A DNA stretch of 64,000 nt. Source: an uncultured Chloroflexia bacterium. GTDB taxonomy: Bacteria; Chloroflexota; Limnocylindria; Limnocylindrales; CSP1-4. The translations under genes and the position numbers were made by a program. Under the pieces are notes generated by a model. That model was not told the origin of the DNA. It searched no databases and saw only the letters and a program-made list of their open reading frames with translations. Below are positions 1-64,000 of this stretch, in pieces. The stretch's first letter is position 1; each line of letters begins with the position of its first letter. The stretch lies in the NCBI GenBank assembly GCA_963713095.1, contig CAVQKK010000009.1, positions 196,991 through 260,990 on the forward strand. Direction: 5' to 3'.

Positions 1-180
1 GTCGTGCAGCTGTGCGAAGGGATCCGGGCGGGCGCGCTCGGAATCGTCGGTGAGCGGGAGACGGCCTCCGTGGATCAGGCGATCGACGCGGCCATTGACG
101 TTTACCGCTGGTATCGACGCCTCGCGGGCGACGCACGCCGCCGCAACCCGATCGCCGCAGCCCTGTACAAGGGCGTCTAG
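1..180 (+). CDS. hypothetical protein, 3' fragment; the 5' end lies outside the window
   Basis: Frame 1 is open from position 1 to a TAG at 178-180. GC3 is high. The next gene starts 24 nt downstream on the same strand. No family was recognised. Confidence 0.3.
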   Translation, partial: VVQLCEGIRAGALGIVGERETASVDQAIDAAIDVYRWYRRLAGDARRRNPIAAALYKGV

Positions 181-203
181 GCCCCGATGACGGTGGAGCC
201 CAG

Positions 204-530
204 GTGACGATCAAGTGGGTCAAGGTGGACCCGCTCGTGATGAATGGCGAGCCCTTCTGCTACGGAACCCGGTTGACCGTGCGCCAGGTGCTCCAGCTTC
301 GGGCAAACGGATATGGCGTCGTCGACCTCCAGAAGGATTTCCCGGAGCTGAAGCGCATGGGGATCGCCGCTGCGTACGCGTACGCAGCGAGTCACCGGGA
401 TCGCTACGCGGACTTCTTCGAGCCGGATGGATCGCTCGCCGGGCCCGGCTTCACGGACGACGAGGCGGGCCAGCTCCCGGATCGCCTCCGCCTGCCCGGG
501 ATCGTGATCAAGGCCGGGGCGGCCGCCTGA
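204..530 (+). CDS. DUF433 domain protein (antitoxin-like)
   Basis: 108-aa ORF with a GTG start preceded by GGTGGAG. The motif 'GEPFCYGTRLTVRQVLQL...G' is typical of DUF433. Confidence 0.55.
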   Translation: MTIKWVKVDPLVMNGEPFCYGTRLTVRQVLQLRANGYGVVDLQKDFPELKRMGIAAAYAYAASHRDRYADFFEPDGSLAGPGFTDDEAGQLPDRLRLPGIVIKAGAAA

Positions 531-551
531 TCGGACGCTTGCCCGTCGGCC

Positions 552-1046
552 TCAGCCGCCCGCCGCCAGCGCGTCGGGGGCCGCGTTCGGCCCCATGACG
601 AGCACCTCGGCATAGCGCTCGTCCCCGCCTGGCTCGCGAATGAGGTAGGCGTGGTGCAGCTCGAGCGCGCCCGAGACGAGGGTGGAGCCCACGGAGCAGT
701 ACTTGGTCGCGGATAGCTCGATTGCCCGGCGCACGGCCTCGGGATCGATCCCGGCACCGTCGACCACGTGCACGACGTCGAACCTCGTGAATGCGTGCGG
801 ATGCCCTTCCCCCTGGACGCCGTTGACCCGGACCTCGTAGCGGCTCACCGCCTGGCGCTTCTTGCGCAGGATCGAGATGACGTCCATGGCGGTGCACCCG
901 GCCAGCCCGGCGCCCACGAGCTCCGCGGGTCGCGGTCCGGCGTCCCCCTCGGCGTCGTCGAGCACGATCGTATGCCCGCTGCCCAGCGTCACATCGAACC
1001 GAAGCCGATCGCCGGTGAGCGTCGCCAGGGCGGTCTTCGTGCTCAT
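552..1046 (-). CDS. OsmC/Ohr family peroxiredoxin-like protein
   Basis: The internal start 'MSTKTALATLTGDRLRFDV...GAGLAGCTAMDV...ATKYCSVGSTL' matches the OsmC fold motifs. The start ATG at 1046 overlaps the upstream gene's stop in an ATGA. The longer 223-aa track ORF has an Arg-rich, non-coding-looking N-terminus. Confidence 0.7.
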   Translation of the reverse strand: MSTKTALATLTGDRLRFDVTLGSGHTIVLDDAEGDAGPRPAELVGAGLAGCTAMDVISILRKKRQAVSRYEVRVNGVQGEGHPHAFTRFDVVHVVDGAGIDPEAVRRAIELSATKYCSVGSTLVSGALELHHAYLIREPGGDERYAEVLVMGPNAAPDALAAGG

Positions 1047-1465
1047 GCCAGGGCCTCCGCGGAGTACCGCTGCTCGATGGCGGCAACTGCCCGGACGAGC
1101 TTCGCTCGTGCCTCTGCGGCCACCTCGGCGACCACCGCATCGTCGACCAGCCCCATGGCCGCCCGCGGATCCATCGCCTCCACGAGCACGACGCCGCCTA
1201 CGTCGCGGATGACGACGTTGCACGGCAGCAGCACACCGACCGCCGGATCGGCGCTGATGGCGCGGTGGGCGAGCGGCGGGTTGCAGGCACCGAGGATCAC
1301 GTACGGGTCCTGGACGACGCCGAGCTTGGCTCGCAGCGTTGCCGCGACGTCGATCTCGGTGAGCACGCCGAAACCCTCGGCGCGCAGCGCGGTCTCGACG
1401 CCTTCGCGGACATCGTCGAACGGGGCGGCGATCCGGGCGCCGAAGGTATAGCGGTCGTCGAACAT
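1043..1465 (-). CDS. DUF302 domain protein
   Basis: 140-aa ORF 'MFDDRYTFGARIAAPFDDVREGVETALRAEGFGVLTEIDVAATLRAKLGV...' reads as DUF302. A GGGAGG RBS lies 6 nt upstream of the ATG at 1465. The remainder of the 467-aa track ORF is a spurious extension. Confidence 0.7.
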   Translation of the reverse strand: MFDDRYTFGARIAAPFDDVREGVETALRAEGFGVLTEIDVAATLRAKLGVVQDPYVILGACNPPLAHRAISADPAVGVLLPCNVVIRDVGGVVLVEAMDPRAAMGLVDDAVVAEVAAEARAKLVRAVAAIEQRYSAEALA

Positions 1466-3367: not shown

Positions 3368-6300
3368 CCCTCGAGCGTCTCGGCGGGCTCCGGCCGGAGC
3401 TTCAACGGCGCCCCCTTCGCTCCTTCCAACAGCGCCTCGAGCTGCTCGCTGGCGAGCGGCCGCGCGAACGAATAGCCCTGGCCACGGTCGCAGCCCAGGT
3501 CCCGCAGGCAGTCCAGCTGCGTGGTCGTCTCGATCCCCTCGGCCACCACGCCGATCCCGAGGCCGTGGGCCAGCGAGATCACGGCGCGGGCGATCGGAAG
3601 GTCCGCCGCGTCGGACCCGAGGCCGGACACGAACGCTCGGTCGATCTTGATCGTGTCCAACGGCAGGTGGCGCAGGTATGACAGCGACGAGTAGCCGGTC
3701 CCAAAGTCGTCGAGCACCAGCTTCACGCCGAGCCGCCGAAGCGCCTGGAGGCGCTCGATCGAGGCCTCGCTCTGGTCCATGACCACGCTCTCGGTGATCT
3801 CGAGCTCGAGCGCGTCGGCATCGAGGCCGGCATCTGCGAGCGTGGCTGCGACCCGATCGACGAGGTCCGACTGCGCGAACTGGCGAGCTGACAGGTTGAC
3901 GCTGACGACCGGTGGCGCCGCGGCCCCGAAGCGCTGCCACGATCGGGCCTGCCGGCACGCCGTCTCCAGCACCCATTGCCCGATCGGGACGATCAGCCCC
4001 GTCTCCTCGGCGAGCGAGATGAACGAAAGCGGCGGGACGAGACCCCGGTCCGGGTGCTGCCAGCGAAGCAGCGCCTCGACCCCCACCACGGTGCCGTCCG
4101 CGAGGTTGACCATCGGCTGGTAGTGCAGCCGGAGCTCGGACCGCTCGATGGCTCGTCGCAGGTCATGCTCCATGGTGGCCAGCTCGAGGCTCTGCGCTCG
4201 CATCTCCGGGTCGAACCTGACCAGGGTTCGCATCGGGTCCGCCTTGGCTCGATGGAGCGCGATGTCGGCTTCCTTGAGCAGGTCGGCGGGGGTGGCGACC
4301 GACGGTCGTGCGACCGCGAGCCCGAGGCTGGCAGCAACCGTGACCTCGCGACCGCCGAGATCGAACGGCTCGGCGAGCGCGGTTGCCAGCCGTGCGGCCG
4401 CCCGCTCGGCGTCGCGCGGGCTTCGGACGCGATCGAGCAGGATCCCGAACTCGTCGCTGCCCACGCGCGCAACCAGGTCGGATGGGCGGGCGGCACCGAC
4501 CAGTCTCCGGCCGACCTGAGCCAGCAGCTGATCGCCGGCCGCATGGCCCAGGCTCTCGTTGACGAACGTGAACCGATCCAGGTCCAGGACGATCAGCGCC
4601 ACTCTGGCCGGCGACGCCGGAGGATTGGCCGCCGGAGGATTGGCCGCCGCCGTCCGGCCGTCCACCGCCGGTGGATTGCCCATCAGCGCAGCAAGCCGGT
4701 CCAGGAGCTCGGTCCGGTTCGACAGCCCGGTGACGGGATCGTGGAGCGCGGCGTAGGCACGCTGCGAACCTTCCGACCGGGCATGCTCGAGGAGGCGCAC
4801 GTGGTCGATGGCGATCGAGGCAAGCTGCGCGAACCGCGCCACGGCCCCTATCTGGCGCTCCGCCAACGGCCGGTTGGCCTCGCCCGATGCCAGGCCGATG
4901 CACCCGGTGACCCTTCCCCCGGACCTGAGCGGGACCGAGCACACCGCCCCGAACCGCTCGGTCTCCAGGTCCGGCGCGCGGTCCGGGTAGGCGTCGTAGT
5001 CGTCGATCACGACCGGGCGGCCGGTTCGGACCACCTCCCAGCCGACGCCGGTGCCGGTGGGCAGCCGGTAGCCGACAAGGTGCTCGAACGTGCCGACCCC
5101 GACGCGGACGGTCATCGTCGGCTGACCGTCGTCGCCATCTTCGAGGAGGTAGAGGAACCCGTCCCGGATCCCGACCAGCTCAGTCGCGCGATCCACGATC
5201 TCTCGCAGCAGGTCCTCGGGATCGAGGTGCTCCAGGAGCGCCAGGGTCGTGCGATCGACAGCCGCGAGGTAGGGGTCGCGGGTGGGGTCCTCCTCCCCGT
5301 GCCCGCGCAGGCTCGGCGGCTTGGCGAGGTACAGCGCCCGATCGGCCGCTTCCACCAGCTCGTCCTTGGTGGCGCCGTCGGCCGGATAGCCGGACACGCC
5401 CGCGCTGATGGTGACCAGCGGCCCTGCCCGCTCGGTGAGCCTGGCCACCGTGGCGCGAACGCGCTCCATGACGTGGCGTGCCTGCGGACCGTCGACGCCG
5501 GGTAGCAGGATCGCGAACTCGTCCCCGCCGTAACGGTAGGCGCGATCACCTTCGCGGATCGTCTCGGTCATCGCGTCTGCGACGCGCGTGAGCAGGGTGT
5601 CCCCGACCGGGTGCCCGTGCCGGTCGTTGTAGACCTTGAACGCGTCGAGATCGAGCATCAGCAACGCGAACGGCTCGCCGGCGTCCACCATGATGCCCAG
5701 CTCACGCTGGAACGCCCCATGGTTGCGAAGGCCGGTCAGGGCATCGCGCTCGGCGCGAGTCATCACGGCACCGTGGGCCTCGGCGTTGCGAAGGGCGATC
5801 GATGCCTGCGCGGCGAACAGCTGGACGAGCTCGAACTCGTCGCGCGCGTAGTGAGCTTCGGCTCCGCCCAGGCGTCCGACGTTGAGCGTGCCGATCACCT
5901 CGCCGCCGATCAGCAGGGGGCACACGATCATCGACTCCGGTTCCTCAGGCGTGCCCGGGATCTGCACGGATCGCGGATCGCGATGCGCGTCGTTGGCGAG
6001 GACGGCCTCGTGATGGCGGATCGCCCAGCCGGTGAGGCCCACGTCGATGGCGCCCTCGTGGGACAGGATCTCCTCGGCGAACCGGTCACGCGCCACGACC
6101 GCGCGGCGGACTCCGGCGGCCCGGTCGATGCGATAGACCGCCAGCGAGTCGTAGGCGACGACTGCGTTGAGCGAGTCGGCGATCATCTCCAGCACGCCGC
6201 TCGGGTCCAGGGTGGCGAGGAGGCGCTCGTTGACCTCGAGCAGCCGGCGCTGGCTTTCCAGGCGGTGACGCAGCTCCTGGCGCTGGCGCCGGACCTGGCC

Positions 6301-7380
6301 GAACGCCTCGGCGTTCACGATGGCCTGCGCCGCCTGTCCCGCGAAGATCTCGAGGGTCTGCTGATCGTCATCCGAGAACTGGTCGTAGCCGGCGTGAGAG
6401 ACCACGATCACGCCCAGGACCCTGGACTCATAGGTCATCGGCACCAGCAGCATCGACTCCGGGCCGCGCGTGGCGCCAATCAGCCTCCCGCGCTGGTCCG
6501 AGGCCGCATCGCCAAGGCGGATCGTCTCGTTGCGGAGAGCGACCCAGCCGGTAAGGCCCTCGCCGATCCGGACCCGCAGCTGGTCCGGCGACGGGCGGCC
6601 GATCCCCATGAACTCGCCCTGGAATGCGATCGGCTCGCACATGCGGGTCCGTTGATCCACCCGGTAGACGCGGATCGTGTCGTGGGCGATCAGCCGGTCA
6701 GCCTCGGCGACGATCGCCTCGCCGATGCCCTCGACGTCCTGGATCCGGTTGAGTCGCAGCGAGAGCTCCTGGATCGCGCGAAGCCTGGCGGCACCCTGAC
6801 GGACGGTGTTGAACAGCCGCGCGTTGGCGACTGCCGTGGCCATCTGACTGGCGAACGTCGCGCACAGGTTGAGCTCGTCCGGCGTCCACGAGTACGGGCG
6901 GCGGTGGTACAGGACCAGGAGCCCCAGGGGTTCGTCACGAAAGACCATCGGGATGAAGGCGATCGTCCGAATGCCGAGCCGCTGGTACACGGGGGCGAAG
7001 AAGGCCGCGCCGGCTGGATCGTCGAGCACGATCGGCCGCCGTTCGCGGATGCTGCGCTGGCCGGTCGTGTCATCGTCCACGGTCACGGCGGTCACGGCTT
7101 CGATCAGCTCGGCTGCCACAGCGCGCTGGGCCGCCAGCCGGAACGGGTGTCGGCCGGGGTTCAGCAGCCATAGTCCGGCGACCTCGGCGCCGAACAGCTC
7201 ACCGGACGCGTCGAGGACGTCCTGGAAGACCTCCTCGAGCTCGAGATTCGCGCTCACCTCGCTGGCCACACGACGGAGGACCTCGGCGCGCTCGGCGCCG
7301 GATCCCGGCCTGTTCATGGGCTCTGCCTTCCGTCCATTGGGGCGGCGATCCGGCGAGCCGTGGTCCGGCGCGAGTGCCAT
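3364..7380 (-). CDS. multidomain c-di-GMP signalling protein: multiple GAF domains, a GGDEF domain (intact RYGGDEF), a second GGDEF (degenerate, VGSDEF) and a C-terminal EAL domain
   Basis: 1338-aa ORF with two 'TGL(R/S)NR' GGDEF-start motifs. The EAL region reads 'LHYQPMV...VEALLRW...ELEITES...DDFGTGYSSLSYL'. An alternative start is M22 (position 7317), which has a GGAAGG-like RBS. Confidence 0.8.
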   Translation of the reverse strand: MALAPDHGSPDRRPNGRKAEPMNRPGSGAERAEVLRRVASEVSANLELEEVFQDVLDASGELFGAEVAGLWLLNPGRHPFRLAAQRAVAAELIEAVTAVTVDDDTTGQRSIRERRPIVLDDPAGAAFFAPVYQRLGIRTIAFIPMVFRDEPLGLLVLYHRRPYSWTPDELNLCATFASQMATAVANARLFNTVRQGAARLRAIQELSLRLNRIQDVEGIGEAIVAEADRLIAHDTIRVYRVDQRTRMCEPIAFQGEFMGIGRPSPDQLRVRIGEGLTGWVALRNETIRLGDAASDQRGRLIGATRGPESMLLVPMTYESRVLGVIVVSHAGYDQFSDDDQQTLEIFAGQAAQAIVNAEAFGQVRRQRQELRHRLESQRRLLEVNERLLATLDPSGVLEMIADSLNAVVAYDSLAVYRIDRAAGVRRAVVARDRFAEEILSHEGAIDVGLTGWAIRHHEAVLANDAHRDPRSVQIPGTPEEPESMIVCPLLIGGEVIGTLNVGRLGGAEAHYARDEFELVQLFAAQASIALRNAEAHGAVMTRAERDALTGLRNHGAFQRELGIMVDAGEPFALLMLDLDAFKVYNDRHGHPVGDTLLTRVADAMTETIREGDRAYRYGGDEFAILLPGVDGPQARHVMERVRATVARLTERAGPLVTISAGVSGYPADGATKDELVEAADRALYLAKPPSLRGHGEEDPTRDPYLAAVDRTTLALLEHLDPEDLLREIVDRATELVGIRDGFLYLLEDGDDGQPTMTVRVGVGTFEHLVGYRLPTGTGVGWEVVRTGRPVVIDDYDAYPDRAPDLETERFGAVCSVPLRSGGRVTGCIGLASGEANRPLAERQIGAVARFAQLASIAIDHVRLLEHARSEGSQRAYAALHDPVTGLSNRTELLDRLAALMGNPPAVDGRTAAANPPAANPPASPARVALIVLDLDRFTFVNESLGHAAGDQLLAQVGRRLVGAARPSDLVARVGSDEFGILLDRVRSPRDAERAAARLATALAEPFDLGGREVTVAASLGLAVARPSVATPADLLKEADIALHRAKADPMRTLVRFDPEMRAQSLELATMEHDLRRAIERSELRLHYQPMVNLADGTVVGVEALLRWQHPDRGLVPPLSFISLAEETGLIVPIGQWVLETACRQARSWQRFGAAAPPVVSVNLSARQFAQSDLVDRVAATLADAGLDADALELEITESVVMDQSEASIERLQALRRLGVKLVLDDFGTGYSSLSYLRHLPLDTIKIDRAFVSGLGSDAADLPIARAVISLAHGLGIGVVAEGIETTTQLDCLRDLGCDRGQGYSFARPLASEQLEALLEGAKGAPLKLRPEPAETLEG
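4616..4645. repeat. in-frame 15-nt perfect tandem duplication (CCGGAGGATTGGCCG x2) inside the GGDEF/EAL gene, encoding PAANP-PAANP
   Basis: Read directly from the sequence: '...gccggaggattggccgccggaggattggccgcc...'. Confidence 0.8.
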
Positions 7381-7704
7381 GGGTCGGATGGTGGTGCCCT
7401 AGCGGCTCGTCCGCTGCCGAGTTCGGCGCGGTGTTGAGGTGTCAGCTCGCACCGTACTGAGCGTGGCTGGGTCGGGCGATAGGACGGTCGTACTCCGGGC
7501 CCGAAACGGATGGTCGCAGGGCGCGTCGTTCGCGGGCCACGGTCAGTTGCCCCCCTCAATCAGCCCGCTCGCGCGGCCGAGATCGCGTCCGGGCTCCAGT
7601 GGGCTGCCGGTCGCCGATCCGCGCCTATCACGAGGTACGGGCCCGCTTTCCCGGCGGGTTCACAATGGGCGCGGGAACGTGACCATGCGCTGAGGTGAGA
7701 TGCG

Positions 7705-8307
7705 ATGCGGATCGCGGTGATCGGGGCCGGCAACGTCGGCGGAGCACTCGGCAAGGCGTTTGTCGCCGTCGGGCACGAGGTGGTGTTCGGCGTGCGCGCC
7801 CCCGACAGCACCAAGACCCTCACCGCGCTGGCAGAGATCCCATCGGCGACCGCGGCATTGCCGGCCGAGGCCGTCGACGGGGCCGATGTGATCGTGTTCG
7901 CGCTCCGGCCCGTGGCGATCGGAGCCATCGTCGCGGACCTGCCGCCGCTGGCGGACCGGATCGTCATCGACGCCATGAACCGCCTCGACACAGACCCGCC
8001 ACGCTCGACTACCGAGGACCTCATCGAGCTCCTGCCCGGTGCCAGGTTCGCCAAGGCGTTCAACACGATCGGGTTCGAGAATCTGACCACCGCCCGGGAT
8101 CGCCGGACGCCGCTGGCCATGTTCGTGGCTGGCGACGACCCCGACGCCAAGCGAGTGGCGATGGGTCTGGCCGCCGAGATCGGGTTCGAACCCGAGGATG
8201 CCGGGGGCCTGTCGAATGCAAGGCCCCTCGAGGAGATGGTCCGGGTCTGGATCGCGCTGACGCAGACGCACGGCCGCACCGTGGGCTTCGCGCTGTCAAG
8301 GTCCTGA
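7705..8307 (+). CDS. NADP oxidoreductase, coenzyme F420-dependent family (NpdG-like F420:NADPH reductase)
   Basis: 'MRIAVIGAGNVGGALGKAFVAVGHEVVFGVR' is an N-terminal Rossmann motif typical of this family. Length is 200 aa. Confidence 0.65.
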   Translation: MRIAVIGAGNVGGALGKAFVAVGHEVVFGVRAPDSTKTLTALAEIPSATAALPAEAVDGADVIVFALRPVAIGAIVADLPPLADRIVIDAMNRLDTDPPRSTTEDLIELLPGARFAKAFNTIGFENLTTARDRRTPLAMFVAGDDPDAKRVAMGLAAEIGFEPEDAGGLSNARPLEEMVRVWIALTQTHGRTVGFALSRS

Positions 8308-8363
8308 CCACCCGACGTCGATCAGATGAGATTGCGTGGTTGCCCCATCCGGCGATCGGCACC

Positions 8364-8395
8364 GCGTACGTGGTACGCATGCGTACCGTGTACGC
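8364..8395. promoter_or_regulatory. near-perfect 32-bp palindrome (candidate TetR operator) containing a perfect 16-bp core GGTACGCATGCGTACC
   Basis: 'gcGTACGtgGTACGCatGCGTACCgtGTACGC' carries four GTACGC half-sites. It sits between the F420 reductase stop (8307) and the TetR start (8408). Confidence 0.5.
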
Positions 8396-8407
8396 TATGA
8401 TGGCAGC

Positions 8408-9097
8408 ATGAATACTGAGTCGATGGACGCCAACGAGACCTCCGTTCGGCCCGTCCTCAGCCGGGACCGCATCGTCGAAGCCGCAGTGGCCGTTGTGGAC
8501 GAAGCAGGAATCGACGGGCTGACCATGCGAGCCGTGGGTAGGCGCCTGCGCTCGGGCACGATGTCGCTGTACCGCCATGTCTCGGGCCGTGACGAGCTCG
8601 TGGGCCTGGTCCTGGAGGCGATGGCGGGTGAGATCCAGGCGTCTCCCCTGTCGGGCAGCTGGCGCGAGGACCTCGCGATCATCGCCCGAGACATGCGCAC
8701 GGGCCTGCTCAAGCGGCCGCAGCTGACCATCCTGCTCGCCTCGCGATCTGGGCGAGGTGGTGTCGAGCTTCCGCTGCTCGATCGAACGCTGGGCGTGCTT
8801 CGAGCCGCCGGATTCGGGCGGCGTGGGGCCGTCCTCGCCAACCATGCCCTGGGCAACTACGTCGCCGGCACCGCGCTGTGGGAGGCCGTCGGGCTCTCGG
8901 GATCGAGCGGAGAGGATCGCGAGTCACGACGTCAGGCCGTGGCTGACGTGACGGCGGCGCTCCCGGCGGACGTGTTCCCGAACCTCGCCTGGGTGGGACC
9001 CAAGATCGTGGCCGGCAGCGTCGACGACCGGTTCGAGTTCGGCCTGACGTGCCTGCTCGACGGGTTCGAGGCCTACCTCGCCCGACGCAAGGGATAG
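8408..9097 (+). CDS. TetR/AcrR family transcriptional regulator
   Basis: N-terminal HTH 'RDRIVEAAVAVVDEAGIDGLTMRAVGRRLRSGTMSLYRHVSGRDELV'. Length about 229 aa. Confidence 0.75.
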   Translation: MNTESMDANETSVRPVLSRDRIVEAAVAVVDEAGIDGLTMRAVGRRLRSGTMSLYRHVSGRDELVGLVLEAMAGEIQASPLSGSWREDLAIIARDMRTGLLKRPQLTILLASRSGRGGVELPLLDRTLGVLRAAGFGRRGAVLANHALGNYVAGTALWEAVGLSGSSGEDRESRRQAVADVTAALPADVFPNLAWVGPKIVAGSVDDRFEFGLTCLLDGFEAYLARRKG

Positions 9098-9175
9098 GGC
9101 GGGCGCGGCCGCGCGGATCAGACTCCGCCGCGGATCAGGCGGGCGCCACCTCCGGCTCGACCGTCCTCGCTCGAC

Positions 9176-9198
9176 GGGGATAGTAGTAGAGGCCCTCG
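9176..9198. repeat. left imperfect inverted repeat (GGGGA-TAGTAGT-AGAGGCCCTCG) at the island boundary
   Basis: The reverse complement of 21547-21570 is GGGGGG-TAGTAGT-TAGGGGCTCG. It lies exactly at the high-GC to lower-GC transition. Confidence 0.35.
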
Positions 9199-9244
9199 AA
9201 GGGGCGGCTCAGTCTGCGATAACGCTGAAGCTCGTCTGAGCTAC

Positions 9245-9759
9245 TCAGGAGACGTGCGGCGTCCAAGTCCATGCCGCCGGCTCGGAGCTCACGGAGCAAC
9301 TCCGCCTCGCAGCCCCGCCCGACGGTACATAGAGCACGCCGTCAACATCGCTTGGACGCTCCACTTCACCGGCAACGAGGGCGACCAGTGCTCACGTCCA
9401 AGGAGGCCGATGAAATAGCAGAGTTCGAGAATGACATTCTGGCGGGCTCGGGACTGGAGTCCCTCTAGCGGAACTCCGTCGCTGGTAGCGGCCTCAAGCG
9501 CACGAAGTTCCGCGCCCAGGTCGTCTGGTGTCATCACGACAACCGCAAACGCGACGTCCACGTTCGCCTCGAACTTCTCGATGATCGTTCGCCCGCGGTT
9601 CGGTTCCTCGACGAGGATCACAGGTTCAAGGCCCACGAGGGTCATAAGCCTGGCAACCGCGTCCCGTGGCCCGGCCTCATGTCCGTGCACGATGAAGACG
9701 CGTCCCGATGCGCCCGTGCGACCTCGGGACTGCGCGAGCCGGCATCGACGCGCACGCAA
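9245..9759 (-). pseudogene. TIR-like nucleotide-binding domain protein (COG4271/pfam10137 type), disrupted by a frameshift near 9385
   Basis: 'RVFIVHGHEAGPRDAVARLM...EPVILVEEPNRGRTIIEKFE...VDVAFAVVVMTPDDLG...RARQNVILELCYFIGLLGR'. After a -1 shift the sequence continues '...VERPSDVDGVLYVPSGG', the canonical PSD.GV.Y C-terminal motif of this family. Confidence 0.5.
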
Positions 9760-12700
9760 CTGGCTCTAAGCGAACGTCCCCGGTCCGCCACGGACTGCGG
9801 CGAGCGTCGGAGGCGCTCATGTCATCGTCGCAGCCTTCGATCGGACGGCTGAGTCCGCCAGCTGCGGGGCCAATGCCAGCTTCGGAGACCCCGATACGAT
9901 CAAGGGTGAGTTGCAGCTCCTCGAGGCATCGCGCGTCGGGCGCGAGGTGGACTGCGCAATCGGCGGCCGTATTCGAAGAACGGTTTGAAGAATTTGGCCC
10001 GTGCGTATCGCAGAACCGAGTGCGGCGGCGAGAAGTTGTATCTCACGAATGAGAGCGTCCATTAGGCGTCGCTCTCCCATTCCAGCAGTTCTTACGGACC
10101 CTCAGCCAGAGGGCGCCTCCGACTGACTTCCCACTCCCGATCGATCGCCACTGCGTTTTGTGGGTTTGTAAGGGTTGGTCGAAGCTCAAGGGTAACGAGA
10201 GCGTTCTGGTAGCTGCAGAAATATCGGCACAGAGACCGGTTCAGGACCAAGGTTGCCGAGTACGCAGCGTGAGGTGGTACCACCTGGCAGTCTCCACGTG
10301 ATCAGCGCGGAGACACCCGACCACTCCAAGCGTATAGCATCACAGCTAACACCTCGCGCATGCTAGTCTCCGCGATCGGTTCCACAGCACGTTCGTAGTT
10401 GTCGATGCGGGTCGTGAGCTCAAGCAGCGCCGATAAGAAAGTCCCCGAGCTCGGGATCTGATCCGGTTGGTCGAACTCAGGAACAAGCGTCTCGTGAGCG
10501 TCTCAGCTGAATCGGCGCTGCAGCCAAGCGACGCCGCCTTCAGGACGTAGAAATTCGCGAGCTCGTTAGGATCCGAAGCGGATATCGTTTCAGTGTTGTA
10601 ATAGGTACTAAACTAAAAATATGAGTGTACAAGCTACCAAAATGGAATAAGACTCGCACTACACTGTACAGCAGTCTCGTGCAGTTCTGGACGATCTCCC
10701 GCGCAGACCGCCTCAAGGTTGCGCGCCCACTGGGATCCGACGCCGAGCGACCAATAAACACATAGCGCCGGAATGAGCACCACATCATCGCGGACTGTCG
10801 GGTGGACTATAATATGATATAGAGAATATAATAGCTTACGAGTGAGCGCGTGGTTGAATTCCCCGCGTGACAGAAGTATCGTAATCAGTAAGAGAGAGCT
10901 AAGTAGCCGACGATCAGGACGAAGTACTGGTAATCGCGAATGACGGATAGTGCGGTCTAAATATTTGAAGGTTTGGCGGTGCTGGAAAGTCGAGCGCCTC
11001 CAGTTAGGACCTCGTAACGTACTGCTCGAGTTACCATTTCACACTCGATCGTATGTCTTCAAGGTCGCGAACGGTTGAACTCACGAATACGAGAGTTGCG
11101 CCGGGTGGTAATACAGAGTCGACCACAGCTCCTCGCTAACGGTGTGTGTAGAGCGGCGATAGCGAAGCAAGCGCAAACGCGATCCCCTCACTAGGTGCTA
11201 GTACGCCTCCTAGAAGAAGTCCTCGTCAAGGCGGTAGCAGTGAAGGTGCTCTTCGGCTGGACGCTAACCCGGTAATAGACCATGTGCCGGACAACCCTAG
11301 CCGAAAATCAAGACGATCCGAACTCGAAGAACAAGAAGAAAGAATGAGACGGCGTGAAGAACGTCGTGAAATTATTTTTTTGAGAGAGTGCTATGAATAG
11401 AACTAAAGAGAAGAACTGCAAGATGAATAGTATCACTACCACTTCACAGCGTTTACCTGGACGTAGACCTTGTCGACCCGAGCTTGTCCTCATAGATACA
11501 CCATCAACCCGACGTGCGCCCGACATGCTCGCAGGGGCTGTTGGACGGAGATCTCTCTTATCTCATTGCGACGAGCTCATCGAGTACTCGCGCCGAAGAA
11601 GTCGGGTTTTCTCGCTTTTAGTTTCGCGAGTAGCGCTTTTTCTAGTTCGCCGCGCAGATTCCGATACGTCGTCTCCTCTTGCTCCTCGGGCGTGAGAACC
11701 GACTCAGCAGCGTGCTCGGCTCTCTGTTCGTTGTCGCTAGTAGATGTCTTCGACTTACCGCCGATGAAGTTGACGATCTCCGCCTTCGCACCGCCACCAG
11801 CGCCTGGCCGATCAGCCACGGGTTGACCATCAGCAGATCCGCACACGCTAGGTTCCGGAACTTGCCGTGTCCCTCTGATCCGAGCAGTCCAGCGTGGCGC
11901 ACGCACGTCAACGCTCATTGTGTTCGGTTGTTGACGTGCGCATGCGCCCGAGGCAGGAACTGCGCGAGATCCCGAGGCCGAGCTTATACAGCCACGCGAT
12001 CTGCTCCTCGGCCTCTGCTCCGGTATGTATCTCACAATCGCCGTCGAACCGGAGCAGGAGCACCATCAGACACGGTAGACGAGAACGTCCACCTTTCCCT
12101 CCATAGCGGATTGCGATACTCCAAGCCTTCGCACCGCCGACGGCCTCGTTGGCCCTCAGCCAAAGCTACGGGTTGACCATCCCGTTCGTCGGCTTCTCGC
12201 GTCACGCAAAATAGTCATCACCCGACTCTGCGACCGCTCGCATCACCCGTTCCTCCGCAGCCGCGAGCGCACGGTGAACTCTGGCGCCTCGGTCAGCTCC
12301 ATGGTCCGAGCGCTCCCACTCCCGAGCCCGGCACCACGACCCCCATCGTCATCCAGCGGATCCTCGTGAACATCGCTCGACTCAATCCGTCTCGGCCTCC
12401 CGAGCCGGTTGCTCTCCTGCCGATGTGGCGGACAGTGATGGCGATTACGTCGAGCCGCGGCAGGACCCCGACGCTTCCACGGTATCCACGACCGCCGACT
12501 GGTTCCCTCCTTCACCGTCACGGCGTCCGGTTGGGTGAGCAAGTCGTATAGTGCGCAGGCGGACGCACCCGCGCTCGCCACCCGGTCGGGTGGTCTCCCG
12601 TAGCGGGACCCCAGTCCGTCGTCGACTCACGGCATACGCAGGTACTCGTCGGGTTTGCTCGACTACGAGGCGATGGAGTGATAGAGCGGCCGGCGAGCTC

Positions 12701-13288
12701 GGCGGTTGCGGCACCAACGTATCGAGGTGTGCATCAGGAGGAAGCTGAACGGCTTCACGCTCGCGGCGTACGACCGGCTTGCGTTTTACTGATCGAACAA
12801 TCCTGCCAGTACGGGCGTGGTGATCGGCGCCTGGCTCACGGCGGGTAGATCGAACCATGAGGGTTCGGCACCCGGATCGTCACCGTTCGTCTCCGCGATG
12901 ATCCGGCGCCACCGATCTCGACCCATACGGGCCACGTCGCATGCCAATCGTCGGCGTTCGATCGGTGCTGATACAGCTCAAGGCTATGGTTAGATGCCTT
13001 GCGGATGACGATGCCCGCGGGGGTCAATAGAACAGGCATACCGCGAAGTGCTGGTCGAGATAGCTACAGTCGTGACGTGCGAAAATGGCACAGTGCCGAT
13101 TGATCGGACCAACGGCGCGCGGATCTCCCGGCGGGCGGCCCCAGATGGCTCTCGAGGGCGGCGATTGGGTGCCTTCATCGTCTCTCGTCTATGTGATGCG
13201 AAGTGACCGATGCGAACTTATGGTTTTTGATATGGTTTAGATTAATGTATGTTTCTTATACTCGAGCTTGAGCATATCGGGGATCGTA

Positions 13289-14284
13289 TCACGATCGTAC
13301 GGATTGAGTAGGTTGATGGTCGCAGGATGCGTCGACGACGGCCTCATGACAGCGCCCGGACCGCAAGGGCCCATCGGCCGATGCCGATCCTACGGGAGCA
13401 GGCAACGAGCCCACGACAGGCGTCGACACGATGGCCACCGAGTCAGTGTCGCAAGCGACATAGGACCCGATGCCGGCAGCGACGTGGCCTGGGCGAGCCC
13501 GAGCGGCAGGCCCCGGCAGGCTGTTGGTGCCAGTGCAGGGAGCGCCGGCATTCATGGCAGTGACGCCCGTAGGTGCAGTGCGGAGAACGCCCAGCCCGAT
13601 CGCAGCTCAGCGACACCCGTGGATGACGTGGCAAGCACTTGAGGAACTTGTCGAGGCGTTAGCGTTCGCTCTCCGGCAGCGTACCGTGTTTGATCCGCCC
13701 GTTCCTTGATGACTTGGCGAAGAGGTCGTAGCGCAGTAGGTGGATCTAGACGCGTAATGGAGAAGAAAGTTGTGTAATAATATGTAATTAAAGTAGAGAG
13801 TAATTGAATCGCTGAGGATTTCCCGCTCATTGGGGTGGGTGACGGCGATGAGGCGAGGGTTGCCAGAGCGGACCAGGCGACATTTGACCCGATCGTCCAC
13901 GCGCCACGCCCGCCTCGGCGACCAACGCGACGGCACGAGGACCGCCACGAGCGACATGACGATGAGCACTGGAAACACGTTGGCCAGCACGCGTCCAGCC
14001 AGTCACATGGAGCCGATGACTCGTGATTGTGTCGAGGAAAGCCGCCGCGTCGGCGGTGGCGTCGACCGCTCGAAGTGGTCCGAGATCACGTGCGTCCACA
14101 GATCGAGCAGGACGAACACGGTCGGGTACATCGACGCGAAGTCGACGTACCGCACCGGGAGCTCGACGCCGCGGATCGGCACTCGGTCCGCCCGCCGTAG
14201 TAGGCGGTCATCGAGTACCCCAGGACCGCGTCGGCCACGAGGTTGGAGCGCGCCATCGGCTGCCTGTCCCGAGGCGAAGGTCAA
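13289..14284 (-). pseudogene. family B DNA polymerase (PolB) remnant, heavily decayed and frameshifted
   Basis: Three conserved motifs are present. A YxGG motif ('GYSMTAYYGGRTE', about 14178-14216) is followed about 22 aa later, after a 1-nt frameshift, by motif A 'VRYVDFASMYPTVF' (about 14090-14130). Compare Pfu '[30 protein letters not shown]'. Motif C 'SYVACDTDSVAIV' sits at 13436-13465. A degenerate motif B-like 'AKSSRNGRIKHG' lies in the AT-rich stretch between them. Confidence 0.5.
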
Positions 14285-14430
14285 GAGCCATGCCGCAGCT
14301 GGAGGCGGAGACCCCGTTTGGGGTCGGCCCCGCGCCTATCGAGGGCGATCCTCGGTGCCATCCGGGTTGAACCGGACGACCGTCGGCTGTAGCGAAACGT
14401 GGTCAGCACACCGTGCGCCGCGACGGTGTC

Positions 14431-16113: not shown

Positions 16114-16128
16114 GCGGGCACTGTTGTA

Positions 16129-16946: not shown

Positions 16947-17096
16947 CCGACCCGCAACTGACGAGAGCGGACGACCCCGTCGAATGAGACAATGGGGACA
17001 TCACCATAGCGCCCCCGCGGCCGCGGTAACGGCCCGGGGGCATGGCACACGGAGGTCAAGTCCGCATGCGCCGTCAGGCTATCGATCGCGGGCAGC

Positions 17097-46128: not shown

Positions 46129-46774
46129 GTGAGCGGGCCTCTGGCAGCGCGGCCGCTCTCGATCCGCTCGCGCGCCGGGCGGCATCGGTGGGGTGAACAG
46201 CGGGGCCAGAGCGTCGTCGAGTTCGCGATGCTGGTCCCGGTGTTCATGATCCTGTTGCTCGGGATGCTCGAGTTCGGGATCGCGTTCACCCACGACCAGA
46301 CCCTGACCTACGCCACCCGTGAGGGCGCCCGCACGGGTGCCTCCCTCGGCAACGGCTCTGCCGACTACCCGTGCAGCACGCCGAACTTCGACGCACCGAT
46401 CGTGGCCGCTGTCGAGCGCGTCCTGCGAATCGCCGGGTTCGCCCATCGACATTACGCGGATCAGCACGATCACGGTGTACCGGGCCAAGAGCGACGGAAC
46501 TCCGACCGGCAACGCCAACGTGTGGTCGCTGGACGTGGGCGGCGGGCCCACGGTGGACGGCCGAGCCCTTGACTTCAGGCAGACATCAACCGGTTGGGCG
46601 CCCTGCACCCGGAACAACGGGGTCGGCGCCGATGCGCTCGGCGTCTCGCTCACGTACCACTACCCATTCCAGACGTCGCTCGGCGGGATCATCGGCTTCT
46701 TCGGGGGGTCCAGCTGGTCGTCGCTGACCATGTCGGACAAGACCGTGATGAACCTCAACCCGACCAACCAGTAG
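46129..46774 (+). CDS. second TadE-like protein; 1-nt insertion (frameshift) near 46425
   Basis: 'GQSVVEFAMLVPVFMILLLGMLEFGIAF'. The C-terminal half continues in frame +1 ('...TVYRAKSDGTPTGNANVWSLDVGG...'). Confidence 0.55.
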
Positions 46775-46783
46775 GGACGACAA

Positions 46784-48936: not shown

Positions 48937-48991
48937 CCGCCGGATGGGCGGATCCGACCGCCCGCTCCCGGCAGCGTGACGCCAGGAGGGT

Positions 48992-50014: not shown

Positions 50015-50634
50015 TTCCTCCCAAGCAGCCGATCGATGATGCTGCGTCGGCGTGGGGGGACGGGCCGAGCCGGCGGAGCGGATGTGGAGATGGGGGGCAT
50101 GGGCTCCGTCACTCGGCCTGGCACGGAGGGAGCCGGCGGGACGAAGGATGGTGCCTCGCCGCCTGCCTGCACCTTGCCTGCCGGCGGTTCCGAACCACGT
50201 TCGAGGTCCGGGCCCGAACGCGCCGGTAACGGGGCTGCTCCCGCGGGCGCCGCCATCACCGATGCTGTGGCCGACGGCGTCCCGGAAGGACGCGGTCCGA
50301 TCAGGGTGGCGGGTTCGGCGTCCGGCGGGACGGGTGGGCCCTGGCCGGCCGGTGGCTCGAGGCCCGGCAGGGGCTGGCCACGATACGCAAACACCTCGTC
50401 CAGCCGGGCCACGAGCCGAATTGCCGCCACGTTCTCCGGATCGATCGACAGCGCGCGCCGCGCCTGCCGGTAGGCCTCCGCGTCGTCGGCGCGTTCGAGC
50501 GCTACCCGCGCCAGACCGACCACGGCGATCGCGTTCCGGGGATCGGCGTCAGAGACCTGGCGATACAGCCCCTCGGCCTGGTGGACAAGTCCGACGGACA
50601 GCGCCCGCTCCGCCTGCAGCAGCAGCTCGATCAT
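50005..50634 (-). CDS. TPR-repeat protein with a Pro-rich C-terminus
   Basis: TPR-like helices 'AIAVVGLARVALERADDAEAYRQARRALSIDPENVAAI' followed by low-complexity PPAP repeats. Confidence 0.45.
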   Translation of the reverse strand: MIELLLQAERALSVGLVHQAEGLYRQVSDADPRNAIAVVGLARVALERADDAEAYRQARRALSIDPENVAAIRLVARLDEVFAYRGQPLPGLEPPAGQGPPVPPDAEPATLIGPRPSGTPSATASVMAAPAGAAPLPARSGPDLERGSEPPAGKVQAGGEAPSFVPPAPSVPGRVTEPMPPISTSAPPARPVPPRRRSIIDRLLGRNCT

Positions 50635-52043
50635 GACGGCGCCGGCCCGGCGTCCGCGAGCATGCCCTGGGCGAGCAGCAGCAGCGACCCCCGATCGTTG
50701 AGCGCCGGGTCCGCGATGACCTGGTCCGTCAGCGCGTTGAGGATCCGCCCGAGCGTAGGTCCCGGCTCCAGCCCGAGCTCGCGGATCAGGTCGTTTCCAT
50801 CGATGCGCAGGGCATACCGGTCGAGGGCGGCCTCAGCCTCGATCTCCGCATCCACGCGGGTCCGGAGGCCTCGCACATCCGGGTCGTCAGGTGGCATCCC
50901 GCTTCCGATGTCATCGGCGCGTCGGAGCTCGAACAGTGCGTCGACGTGCTCCCGACCGACGCGCTTGATGAACCGCCGGACTGCGGCGTCGGTCGCGTCT
51001 GGATCGATCGGGAACATGTGATGCCGGATGAGGTTCGTCACCTCGTCGGCTGCGGCCCGCGGGTAGCGCAGGCGTCGGAGGAGCGCGTCGGCCTGACGGG
51101 CCCCGACCGCGTCGTGGTGATGGAACCGGCCATCGTCGAGCGTTGCCGGCTTGCCGATGTCGTGGAGGAGCGCCGCGAGCCGGACGACCGGCCGGTCTGC
51201 GGGCGCCGCGTCGACCGTACCCAGGGTGTGGTCCCAGAGATCCTCGCCGGGCACCTTGTTCTGCGCGATCCCGCGCTGCGCCGCGAGCTCGGGCGAGAGG
51301 ACCTCCAGCACGCCGGTCTCCTGTGCGATCCGCAGCCCGATCGACGGTCGTGGCGCGGCCAGCAGCTTGGCCAGCTCACCACCAATTCGCTCGCCGGACA
51401 GGTGGGCGACGAGCGACGCGTTGGACGAGATCGCGCCCAGCGTGGCGGGCTCGATCTCGACCTCGAGCACGGCGGCAAGTCGGACGGCGCGGATCATGCG
51501 CAGGGCATCCTCGCGGAACCGTGCGTCGGGATCGCCGACGGCGCGCAGGCGCCGGCTCGCCAGATCGTCGAGGCCCGCGAACGGATCGACCAGCTCGTAC
51601 GTGTCGGCGTTCGGGCTGGCTCCGCGGCCCCAGGCCATCGCGTTGATGGTGAAGTCGCGCCGGGCGAGGTCCGCGACGACATCGTCGCCGAACTGCACCC
51701 GATGAGGTCGACGGAAGTCCGCGTACTCGTGCTCAATCCGGAAGGTCGTGATCTCGAACATGCCCTCGTCGCGTCGAACGGCGACGGTGCCGAATCGGTT
51801 CTCGTACACGGCACCATGGAGCAAGGCGACCAGCCGATCGGGTCGAGCATCGGTGGCCAGGTCCCAGTCGACGGGCCGGCGGTCCATCATCACGTCCCGG
51901 AGCGAGCCACCGACCAGGTACGCGGCGTGCCCGGAGCGATGAAGCTCCTCGAGGAGCGAGCGCACACCCGCGGGAATGGCCCGCTCGAGCCGATCGCTCA
52001 GTTCCGGGCCGCGGCGCGACGCCGCTCCGGCCAGGTTGGCCAT
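50631..52043 (-). CDS. CCA-adding tRNA nucleotidyltransferase (polyA-polymerase head + HD domain)
   Basis: 'GHAAYLVGGSLRDVMMDRRPVDWDLAT' is the Pol-beta nucleotidyltransferase motif and 'LLHDIGKP' is the HD motif. The start is the ATG at 52043; the track ORF's N-terminal 158 aa are Arg/Pro-rich and spurious. Confidence 0.8.
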   Translation of the reverse strand: MANLAGAASRRGPELSDRLERAIPAGVRSLLEELHRSGHAAYLVGGSLRDVMMDRRPVDWDLATDARPDRLVALLHGAVYENRFGTVAVRRDEGMFEITTFRIEHEYADFRRPHRVQFGDDVVADLARRDFTINAMAWGRGASPNADTYELVDPFAGLDDLASRRLRAVGDPDARFREDALRMIRAVRLAAVLEVEIEPATLGAISSNASLVAHLSGERIGGELAKLLAAPRPSIGLRIAQETGVLEVLSPELAAQRGIAQNKVPGEDLWDHTLGTVDAAPADRPVVRLAALLHDIGKPATLDDGRFHHHDAVGARQADALLRRLRYPRAAADEVTNLIRHHMFPIDPDATDAAVRRFIKRVGREHVDALFELRRADDIGSGMPPDDPDVRGLRTRVDAEIEAEAALDRYALRIDGNDLIRELGLEPGPTLGRILNALTDQVIADPALNDRGSLLLLAQGMLADAGPAPS

Positions 52044-52051
52044 GGCTCCGC

Positions 52052-52567
52052 TCAGTTGCGCCCGAGGAACAGGTACGTCCTCCAGGCCTCGTTGCGCGTG
52101 TCGGCGAGGTACGGCGTAAACAGCGAGTACAGGTCGCTGCGCGGCTCGAACGGCGCCCGCACCAGTCGCAGGCGCGCCTCCTCGGGGGTGTGCCCGCCCT
52201 TGCGGTGGTTGCACGGCTTGCACGCGGCGACCAGGTTCTCCCAGGTGTGACCGCCACCCCGATGGCGCGGCAGCACGTGATCCAGGGTGAGGTCGTTTGA
52301 CTGGCGACCGCAATACTGGCAGGTGTTCCGGTCCCGGCTGAAGATCTCGCGCCGGGTCAGCTTCACGCGAGGGCGCGGGCGCTTGATGTGGTGCTGGAGG
52401 CGGATGACCGATGGCGCCTTGTACACGGTCCGGACCGTCCGGATCTCGGCGTGGTTGTACTCGATCACCTCGGCCTTGGAGCCGAACACCAGCCGGAACG
52501 CCCGCGGGATGTTGCACACGTTCAGCGGCTCGTAGTTCTGGTTCAGCACGAGCACGACGCCGTCCAT
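52052..52567 (-). CDS. HNH endonuclease family protein
   Basis: 'CQYCGRQSNDLTLDHVLPRHRGGGHTWENLVAACKPCNHRKG' is the canonical HNH motif. Confidence 0.75.
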   Translation of the reverse strand: MDGVVLVLNQNYEPLNVCNIPRAFRLVFGSKAEVIEYNHAEIRTVRTVYKAPSVIRLQHHIKRPRPRVKLTRREIFSRDRNTCQYCGRQSNDLTLDHVLPRHRGGGHTWENLVAACKPCNHRKGGHTPEEARLRLVRAPFEPRSDLYSLFTPYLADTRNEAWRTYLFLGRN

Positions 52568-53012
52568 CGGCCGAACGATAACAGGACCGCTGGCAGGGGC
52601 GGCCCGCAGGGTTGGGAAGGCGACCGGGGTCTCGGCGGCTGGCTCCTTGTCAGACCCTCGGCGGGTCCATCGCCCGCTCGATCCGGGCGATCTCGACCTC
52701 GATCCGGCCGACGTCGCTGGACGCCTGCTCCCACTCGCGGCTGCCGACGGCCGCAGCGTTGCGCCGCTGCCGCGCCTCGTCATGCTGGACCAGGAGCTGT
52801 TCGCGGGTTTCGGCCGGCCGGACGTCACCGGTCGCGGACGTATCGGGCATCGTTCCTCCGGAAGGTGCTCGCCAAGCGTACCGCGCGACGCCGATCGACG
52901 GGTCACCGTCGTCCCCTATCCGCCCGTCTCGCCTCCCTCGCGCCCGGCCCGCCGCGGAGAGATTCGTGCTGCTGTCAAGGCGCACGTTTATTCGCTGGAG
53001 TACGATCCGCTC

Positions 53013-62737: not shown

Positions 62738-62756
62738 GCCGCCATGGTGATGGCCT

Positions 62757-63509
62757 TCAGCCGGTCGCGCGCCGCCGGCGCACCCAGCGGACGGGCGCCG
62801 TCACCGTACCGACGGCCATGTTGACCGCGGCGCTGTGGCGCAGGTTGCGGACATGGCGCCACTGCCGGCGCTTGTCCACGCACACCTTCTGCGACTCGAC
62901 GACCGGCGCGGCGACACCGAGGGACGCGGCGAGGTTCTCCAAGGTCCGCTCCCAGAACCGGTCGTTGGCGCGGTTCGCGCCGAAGAGGTAGGTAAGCTCG
63001 ATGAACGGGTCGCTGGTGCGCTCGAGCGCCTGCGCCTGGGCGACGGTCGTGTCGCCGTCGCGGTAGGCCGAGAAGGTGATCCAGGCCGACAGCGCGTGCC
63101 CCTCGGGCGTCATGAACGTGAACGACTCGTCGTCGGCGTAGATGACCATGACGCCGGTGGACATCTTGACCGGTGAGCCGGGCACGGGGGCCACCTCGAG
63201 CAGCGCCACCTCGCCCGGCTTGATCCCCGACAGGGGAGCGTAGAAGCGGGCGCCCTTGGGCCAGAACGTTGGAAACCGTTCCTTCCAGAACGCGACCACG
63301 CCCTCGGGGGCCATGTCGACGCCGTCAAGGCGGACCGAGAACGTCTTCTGCCACATCTGGCCGAAGCCCTGGACCGGGCCCGTGACCTTTCGTCCCGTCA
63401 CGGTGTCCATGGCGGCGCCGGTGGCCGTGGTCGAGAGCCGGGCAACCGGCCGCGCCCAGGCATCAGTGTCCTGGCGCTTCGAGGGAGGGGTGGACGGGGA
63501 CGCGGACAT
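62757..63509 (-). CDS. DUF1990 domain protein
   Basis: 'GFGQMWQKTF...' Start at the ATG at 63509, 7 nt after a GGAGG. Confidence 0.55.
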   Translation of the reverse strand: MSASPSTPPSKRQDTDAWARPVARLSTTATGAAMDTVTGRKVTGPVQGFGQMWQKTFSVRLDGVDMAPEGVVAFWKERFPTFWPKGARFYAPLSGIKPGEVALLEVAPVPGSPVKMSTGVMVIYADDESFTFMTPEGHALSAWITFSAYRDGDTTVAQAQALERTSDPFIELTYLFGANRANDRFWERTLENLAASLGVAAPVVESQKVCVDKRRQWRHVRNLRHSAAVNMAVGTVTAPVRWVRRRRATG

Positions 63510-63531
63510 GTCGAACCTCCGATCCTTTGGG

Positions 63532-63873
63532 TCAGGACGAGGCAGCCGCCAGCGCGGCCCGTTCGTCGTCGTGGATGCCAATCGCCTCGTCGAGGCGGGT
63601 CAGGGCCAGGATCTGGCGGTAGTGCTCGGACAGGCCGATCGCATGGAGCTTCTGTCCGCCCCGCTGGGCACGGACGAGCAGCGTAACCAGCAATCCGATG
63701 CCACCGCTGTTCATGTACTCGAGATCGGTGAAGTCGAGGACGATCGAGCGGACGCCCGTGGCGACCTGCCCGTACGCATCCATGAGCGGCGCCTCGCTGG
63801 CCCCGGTGATGTCGCCGTGGACGCGCAGGATCGTCGCGCTCGCGGCGGGGACGATGTCGACGGTGGTGCTCAT
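63532..63873 (-). CDS. STAS domain anti-sigma factor antagonist
   Basis: 'ILRVHGDITGASEAPLMDAY...LDFTDLEYMNSGGIGLLV' matches SpoIIAA-like. Confidence 0.7.
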   Translation of the reverse strand: MSTTVDIVPAASATILRVHGDITGASEAPLMDAYGQVATGVRSIVLDFTDLEYMNSGGIGLLVTLLVRAQRGGQKLHAIGLSEHYRQILALTRLDEAIGIHDDERAALAAASS

Positions 63874-64000
63874 CGGGTCGCTTCCTCCAGCTGGCCGGCC
63901 GCGGGGGACGCGTCGGCAATGGTCAGGTAGTCGGACAGGCGCGTGATCCGGAAGATCTCGAGGTAGTGCTCCGACAGGCCCATGGCGATCACCTCCCGGT
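63870..64000 (-). CDS. second STAS-domain anti-sigma antagonist, 3' fragment; the 5' end lies beyond the window
   Basis: '...REVIAMGLSEHYLEIFRITRLSDYLTIADA' is paralogous to the downstream gene. The stop overlaps its start in an ATGA. Confidence 0.5.
   Translation of the reverse strand, partial: REVIAMGLSEHYLEIFRITRLSDYLTIADASPAAGQLEEATR

Follow-up and report, generated by a model that had tools for sequence, protein, structure and literature searches.

Across a 64,000-nucleotide stretch of contig CAVQKK010000009.1, assembled from an uncultured Chloroflexia bacterium (positions 196,991 to 260,990; hereafter the window), small insertions and deletions (indels) break the reading frames of a MoeZ-like sulfur-carrier gene, a tadE-tadE-tadG pilus cluster and the genes of a 12-kb island. 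We conclude that most of these frame breaks are probably consensus errors of a Nanopore-only metagenome assembly, not mutations. The indels are genuinely in the deposited sequence, and most of the affected genes should not be called pseudogenes. Judged from sequence, the MoeZ-like protein, the two TadE-like pseudopilins (TadE1 and TadE2), the TadG-like protein, a stand-alone Cas1 and an ABC-3C ATPase are most likely intact in the cell, and a TIR-like protein is probably intact as well.

Removing the indels yields full-length products under purifying selection, as expected of consensus errors. The marks of real decay are largely missing. No nonsense mutation or larger deletion was found in the repaired moeZ-like, tadE1, tadE2, tadG, Cas1 or ATPase genes; only a family-B DNA polymerase (PolB) in the island carries such damage. 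The ratio of non-synonymous to synonymous substitution rates (dN/dS) is not raised on the lesion-bearing lineage for the tad or moeZ-like genes, and the lesions are not reproduced independently, being absent from a second copy of the island (L001) and from the tad cluster of a close relative (L009).

Distribution and repair of the frame breaks

The source is an uncultured bacterium of soil or sediment, probably a Limnocylindria-like member of the Chloroflexota. The nearest relatives of the window fall into three groups: European Nucleotide Archive (ENA) contigs (contig_N) of analyses ERZ25039495, ERZ25039500 and ERZ25039533; Illumina metagenome contigs of the Joint Genome Institute (JGI) together with one metagenome-assembled genome (MAG) from NCBI; and species representatives, namely uncultured Chloroflexia MAGs named MFDxxxxx.bin and “Candidatus Limnocylindrales” genomes. 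All gaps were listed from alignments of the window with six relatives (93-94% identity; 3751-9175 and 21531-34324) and with L009 (95.6-96% identity; 36780-53009). Frame changes were also sought by using every long open frame of 15 relatives as a tblastn query, and by frameshift-aware alignment, which gave zero false shifts on intact genes at 65-76% identity, a calibration that holds only at 65% identity or above. In the stretches without relatives, genes show complete Pfam domain coverage, and a sigma-factor gene (34384-34956) lies in one frame.

About 20 frame breaks lie outside PolB, which is broken many more times. Most are in the 12-kb island, and five fall within 2.5 kb in the tad cluster; outside these two loci the ~41 kb compared with relatives contains a single frameshift, that of the moeZ-like gene, and the consensus is otherwise highly accurate. 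The chance that five of the six non-island frameshifts would fall within some 2.5-kb span of ~41 kb is ~8e-5. Other gaps relative to the relatives outside the island were intergenic, compensated or in-frame, and were not counted as frame-breaking. Wherever a frameshift of the window could be checked, it is private, absent from all relatives' assemblies, the comparison being one among close relatives with no assembly of the identical strain. A preliminary description of this DNA had listed a series of 1-nt indels, several of them in housekeeping genes, and had proposed comparison with closely related assemblies; that comparison, run here, is the one that finds the indels private to the window. 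All the frameshifts listed are present in the sequence, and the list was an undercount, since several genes are broken more often than it recorded. Most of the indels are indeed of 1 nt, the exception being a 2-nt deletion in tadG at 48043. The placement in housekeeping genes did not hold: the moeZ-like gene alone is of housekeeping type, and the others lie in the island or the tad cluster.

The contexts of the shifts include GAT[C]CGA, CTGC[G]AAT, AAC[A]AGC and GGG[C]CAG (inserted bases bracketed) and isolated T deletions. Neither a slippery heptamer nor a simple-sequence repeat occurs at any shift site. CCAGG or CCTGG at or near several sites suggested Dcm-like errors at methylated CCWGG; we rejected this idea because the CCAGG at 47690 is native, the extra A lying in AACAAC[A]AG, and because other sites lack the motif.

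In the tad cluster, break positions were fixed by three-way alignment with the intact clusters of L009 and L010. The first tadE-like pseudopilin gene (tadE1; 45482-46132, plus strand) has an extra C at 45545 and a 1-nt deletion at 45943, the latter additional to those described before; repaired, it encodes 216 amino acids (aa), and its homologues are intact in L009 (211 aa) and L010 (216 aa). The second (tadE2; 46129-46774, plus strand) has an extra G at 46427, where the window reads CTGCGAATC, L009 CTGCAATC and L010 CTGGAGTC; its repaired product of 214 aa equals those of the relatives. The tadG-like gene (46784-48936, plus strand) has an extra A at 47684 besides the 2-nt deletion at 48043, and its repaired 717-aa product covers 100% of homologues of 717 and 719 aa. 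Frameshift-aware alignment confirmed both tadG breaks and scored each as a one-base frame advance, a 2-nt deletion moving the reading frame in the same way as a 1-nt insertion. The restored tadE1, tadE2 and tadG frames contain no in-frame stop.

Substitutions on the window's own branch of the tad cluster follow the pattern of genes under constraint. The 109 private substitutions divide 24/23/62 among the three codon positions, giving a ratio of non-synonymous to synonymous polymorphism (pN/pS) of 0.29, below the 0.39 and 0.41 on the branches of the intact L009 and L010 clusters; among the three alleles, that of the window has the fewest private amino-acid changes. For the window branch we could reject both neutrality (omega = 1, p = 2e-10) and omega = 0.55 (p = 6e-4), the branch average expected were roughly a third of the branch neutral. 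The tad genes of the window thus appear to show no sign of relaxed selection.

The tad cluster is also where the strains differ. Over 39-43 kb, L009 and the window are free of indels relative to each other and differ at no more than one base in 500; in the tad cluster they are 8-14% divergent. At two of the insertions, 45545 (T+C) and 46427 (C+G), the window carries side by side both bases that distinguish L009 from L010, as if both alleles had been kept. A general rule of this kind for the insertion sites fits these two and not the moeZ-like site, and we retain it as a suggestion only. The window allele is a fine mosaic of L009-like and L010-like sites with modest clustering (runs test, z = -5.6), which fits ordinary phylogeny and recombination as well as a short-scale chimera, and so is not decisive. 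The cluster as a whole (45400-48990) is hypervariable, with in-frame indels of 3-15 nt relative to L009 and L010, and is missing from the species of L011. Its dN/dS values of 0.24-0.39 indicate purifying rather than diversifying selection overall, and its hypervariability is probably real.

The moeZ-like gene (25065-26259, plus strand) encodes a rhodanese-ThiF sulfur-carrier adenylyltransferase and contains one extra C at 25497/25498 (GGG[C]CAGG). The base is missing at seven loci (L002-L008), four of them JGI Illumina contigs, and the relatives read GGG-CAG. With the C deleted, the gene encodes a 397-aa protein that aligns without gaps to 397-aa relatives at 96.7% identity and scores above the NF006444 cut-off. 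The 253 codons 3' of the shift differ from those of close relatives at 22 synonymous and 4 non-synonymous positions; the part downstream of the shift thus appears to be still under purifying selection. Exact-pattern scans of JGI metagenomes at the moeZ-like and ATPase sites returned no match for either allele, and so favour neither. The gene heads an operon (25065-28035) whose further genes encode a ThiS/CysO-like carrier with a terminal GG, a PALP cysteine synthase, annotated in relatives as a CysO-thiocarboxylate-dependent CysM, and a JAB/Mec-like protease. This CysO-type cysteine biosynthesis operon lies directly 3' of Rrf2-SufC-SufS-NifU.

Sequencing provenance and a short-read control

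Proteins of the window share 90% protein clusters and sources (NCBI and ENA) with sister contigs of the Microflora Danica type, and the window would be a product of the same pipeline. The Microflora Danica long-read catalogue was built from Nanopore reads only, using Flye (--meta --nano-hq) and one round of Medaka without short-read polishing, and its authors checked it for Nanopore-associated errors (PMC12313526). The same group had found that ~40x coverage is needed for a near-finished Nanopore consensus and that Nanopore indels give rise to frameshifted gene calls (PMC9262707).

A relative from the same ENA series provides a control with a truth set. L003 is 99.8-99.9% identical to two short-read contigs, L007 and L005. 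Against L007 it shows three 1-nt indels in the ~12.4 kb shared (99.86% identity), all of them extra bases in L003; the two short-read contigs show no indel between them in 11.5 kb. The private insertions of L003 lie at 16977, 18214 and 19837, equivalent to 32022, 33242 and ~34.6 kb in the window; two of them break genes, leaving ackA truncated (329 aa versus 371 aa) and the N-terminal half of an ECF (extracytoplasmic function) sigma factor scrambled. Private indels are demonstrably made by this pipeline, and the extra C of the moeZ-like gene looks like one more sporadic case. The earlier proposal that the breaks are uncorrected errors of a long-read assembly is therefore backed by the pipeline behind its close relatives, the L003 control, the privacy of the indels, the restored gene lengths and the absence of relaxed selection.

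Cas1, the ATPase and the polymerase of the island

The island (9176-21530) lies between a TetR-family and an Rrf2-family gene and is missing from 94%-identical relatives; it is probably a real insertion or replacement relative to them. Pfam matches in it are to a TIR-like CAP12/Pycsar domain, to Cas1 and a DUF2326 ATPase, both split, and to a fragment of a Mutator transposase; the ATPase is accompanied by its ABC-3C partners, MC6 and CTD10. Frame breaks were called against intact outgroup proteins and against L001, a 13-kb contig from another sample that holds the island only.

The stand-alone, casposase-like Cas1 gene (17042-18673, plus strand; ~544 aa) has three 1-nt deletions, at 17086, 17159 and 17630. 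The window and L001 differ here at 129 positions, distributed 28/22/79 over the codon positions, with a dN/dS of 0.25. If all bases found in one or the other sequence are kept, one open frame of 548 codons results, which has no stop with the substitutions of either; gap-filled in this way, Cas1 can be aligned in one frame with residues 1-526 of intact homologues (505-546 aa). In Cas1, every base that the window lacks is a T, and most of those that L001 lacks are A.

The converse operation repairs the ABC-3C ATPase (18650-20319, minus strand; DUF2326 at its C-terminus), which has two 1-nt insertions, G at 19452 and T at 19504. Dropping the bases private to either assembly in the comparison with L001 leaves an open frame of 586 codons that holds a 555-aa protein. 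The warning that pseudogene calls in the island are untrustworthy is thus supported, because the two broken assemblies jointly rebuild an intact Cas1 and an apparently intact ATPase. The TIR-like gene (CAP12/Pycsar type; 9246-9880, minus strand) has -1 shifts at ~9392 and ~9321 and possibly at ~9778 and ~9807. A hypothetical gene (16151-17000, plus strand), homologous to a 295-aa gene 5' of Cas1 in L094, is broken at ~16332 and 16687, with more breaks in its 3' part.

Between 15.9 and 19.7 kb, the window and L001 differ by ~40 small indels, almost all of 1-2 nt and none common to both. The two are 4-25% divergent where indels lie; over 20-21.6 kb they are 0-0.6% divergent and show no indel. 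Despite 13 frameshifts, the Cas1 of L001 (8673-10259) shares 68% identity with the outgroup protein, compared with 66% for the window's copy, and the PolB of L001 (3656-6741) has 26 frameshifts at 60% identity over 946 residues. We conclude that the indels of L001, at least, appear to be technical, because such protein conservation would not survive that many real frame breaks. The last 2 kb of L001 are identical to the window, and error density varies sharply within that one contig.

PolB is a different case. The remnant (12407-15163, minus strand) retains motif A (YVDFASMYPT) and motif C (YVACDTDS). A Pfam search of 12-16.2 kb in all three minus-strand frames returned only a Mutator fragment and no match to PolB, and the gene was recognized via the 1001-aa polymerase of L094, which adjoins an intact Cas1. 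Identity to that protein is 37%, with 8 in-frame stops; tblastn indicates at least 7 frame changes and frameshift-aware alignment ~23, a method that may over-call shifts at this identity. In an AT-rich stretch at ~13.55-13.85 kb, PolB similarity is weakest or undetected. The break described earlier at ~14176 is real relative to L001. We conclude that the window's PolB is probably truly degraded, and for this reason the element is unlikely to be autonomous here, even with an intact Cas1. The earlier suggestion that the element is more intact than it appears therefore holds for Cas1 and the ATPase, and probably for the TIR-like gene, and fails for PolB.

The island looks like a casposon-derived element with anti-phage cargo. 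Its content reads as a TIR-like CAP12 gene, an Mrr-like remnant, the PolB remnant, the gene of the 295-aa family, Cas1 and ABC-3C genes (ATPase, MC6 and CTD10). The PolB remnant lies ~2 kb upstream of the reconstructable Cas1 on the opposite strand, and two intact relatives, L094 and L095, carry both PolB (1001 aa) and Cas1. In these Chloroflexota-type relatives (L094, 4684-14691; L095, 3-9428), PolB is followed by three small genes, the 295-aa gene and Cas1 (522 aa), and after Cas1 by SIR2_2 and DUF5655 cargo. At the island ends we found no convincing terminal inverted repeats or target-site duplication. In L091 (7736-12770) and L092, which represent another organism, a 71%-identical Cas1 adjoins NifU-MoeZ-ThiS-PALP, the same neighbourhood as in the window, which suggests a preferred integration region. 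The Mutator-family fragment (15199-16113, minus strand) separates the PolB remnant from the Cas1 region and matches only positions 302-351 of the 379-position profile, at 19-22 bits versus a gathering threshold of 21 bits. The stretch 10000-12000 has a G+C content of ~0.55, compared with 0.70 for the contig, and contains AT-rich, non-coding-looking sequence and the Mrr-like remnant, which was identified via the Mrr_N and Mrr_cat genes of L001.

Strain mixture, decay and other explanations

We suggest that the errors would pile up where strains differ, at the 12-kb island and the hypervariable tadE-tadE-tadG cluster. Strains that are identical across most of their genomes and 5-25% divergent at these loci would collapse onto one contig, and a polisher meeting the mixed read pile-up there may output insertions and deletions of 1-2 nt. 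Because these loci set apart strains that otherwise match, such collapse is likely in a metagenome; low coverage of a generic kind would not account for the clustering of errors in two strain-variable loci. Collapsed-haplotype artefacts arise when a consensus is polished on a mixture of diverged alleles. The window resembles them in that its frameshift density follows local divergence and that 45545 and 46427 carry both alleles; it differs from them at the moeZ-like site, which has no known polymorphism.

The broader problem is familiar. As in other Nanopore-only assemblies affected by consensus errors (the IDEEL-type problem), private 1-2-nt indels split full-length conserved genes, the source pipeline combines Nanopore-only reads with one Medaka round, and a sister assembly shows the same defect against short reads. 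Classic Nanopore errors fall in long homopolymers and scale genome-wide with low coverage (PMC9262707), whereas here the runs are of at most three bases and the errors sit at strain-variable loci. Frameshifted calls in Nanopore-only assemblies are thus well known; this form of them is non-classical, being confined to polymorphic loci and not bound to homopolymers.

Several observations weigh against consensus error as the general explanation. The indel sites lie in runs of only 1-3 bases, an argument against homopolymer errors of the classic type but not against consensus errors at large. Strong clustering in accessory and mobile loci is also what real decay predicts, and the selection tests are compatible with very recent inactivation. 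The 8 stops of PolB and its 37% identity are beyond what small indel errors produce. In both island assemblies the indels have a direction, with deletions in Cas1 and upstream of it (15910-18110) and insertions in the convergent ATPase (18760-19640); insertions also prevail in the tad genes. The strain mixture is something we infer, and its both-alleles signature is missing at the moeZ-like site; the sequencing technology of the window is taken from its sister contigs.

We lean slightly towards a mixed picture: the left half of the island, from the TIR-like gene to PolB (9.2-16 kb), truly decayed, and the breaks in Cas1, the ATPase, the tad genes and the moeZ-like gene artefacts. The state of PolB, with its stops, low identity, ~23 frame changes and AT-rich stretch, is consistent with such a division, as are the divergence between the window and L001, 10-25% in the left half and 0-10% further right, and the lower G+C at 10-14 kb (0.55-0.62). 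However, the PolB of L001 is conserved but frameshifted, so that the window's PolB may in part be a consensus problem on a divergent copy, and the number of its shifts may be inflated by over-calling at 37% identity.

Genuine recent pseudogenization throughout, in which the tad pseudopilins, casposon genes, defence ATPase and MoeZ were lost under weak selection, we consider unlikely. Mycobacterium leprae-type decay is an example of genuine pseudogene accumulation. The window recalls such accumulation in its multiple breaks per gene, in their position in mobile or accessory DNA (the island, and a pilus cluster that is variably present, as its absence from L011 shows), in a clearly degraded PolB remnant with stops, in the Mutator transposase fragment within the island and in indels without homopolymer association. 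It is unlike it in that the tad, Cas1, ATPase and moeZ-like genes have no nonsense mutations, larger deletions, shared lesions or raised dN/dS; no indel in any repaired gene is longer than 2 nt, and lengths are restored exactly. Five breaks in 2.5 kb would have to coexist with a lower pN/pS and fewer private amino-acid changes than in either of the other two tad alleles. The moeZ-like gene is intact in all relatives, and its 3' part is still constrained. L001 would require 13 (Cas1) and 26 (PolB) independent frameshifts at identities equal to or above those of the window, and private indels of this kind are demonstrably made by the same pipeline.

Less probable still is a locus-targeted process that generates indels where strains vary, perhaps linked to recombination or to the mobile element. 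In that case the indels would be real: the same casposon genes would have been disabled separately in the window and in L001, through different single-base indels, and the window's tad pseudopilin operon would have been hit five times without visible relaxed selection, which would not be ordinary decay. Programmed or phase-variable frameshifting, by slippage or slipped-strand mispairing, that regulates pilus or defence genes is scarcely credible: pilus and surface genes are classic targets of phase variation and several breaks do share one operon, but the sites have no repeat tract or slippery heptamer, the shifts differ in sign and size (+1, -1, -2), and relatives encode the same proteins in one frame.

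If most of the breaks are consensus errors, as we favour, the point is practical rather than biological: a caution for annotating this contig and similar MAGs. Frame breaks gather at strain-variable loci, probably throughout Nanopore-only MAG catalogues, and mobile islands and hypervariable surface-protein clusters are where pseudogenes, defence systems and mobile-element activity are sought. Taken at face value, the window would be misread as broken in its cysteine or sulfur-carrier pathway (MoeZ) and as carrying a tad pilus, a casposase and an ABC-3C defence system that are all dead. Comparison of two error-bearing assemblies, with gaps either all kept or all dropped, gave intact genes without recourse to reads and is usable as a check on repairs.

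The remainder of the window was mapped using a frame model based on G+C at third codon positions (GC3), Pfam, NCBIfam and gene calls of relatives. A tRNA scan of the 64 kb found no tRNA genes. G+C is ~70% across the window, apart from the block of lower G+C at 10-14 kb. To the left of the island, 1-9.1 kb holds ordinary genes, including those for a 1338-aa GAF/GGDEF protein, an F420-type oxidoreductase and a TetR-family regulator. To its right, 21.6-34 kb contains Rrf2, SufC, SufS, NifU, the rhodanese-ThiF (moeZ-like) gene, ThiS, PALP, JAB, phosphoketolase and acetate kinase, among others. A DUF885 protein, an HhH-GPD glycosylase, glycerate kinase and a Usp/glycosyltransferase protein follow at 36.8-45 kb, then the tadE-tadE-tadG cluster (45.4-48.9 kb), and 49-64 kb encodes GalE, a CCA-adding enzyme, PdxS, a P-type ATPase and others.

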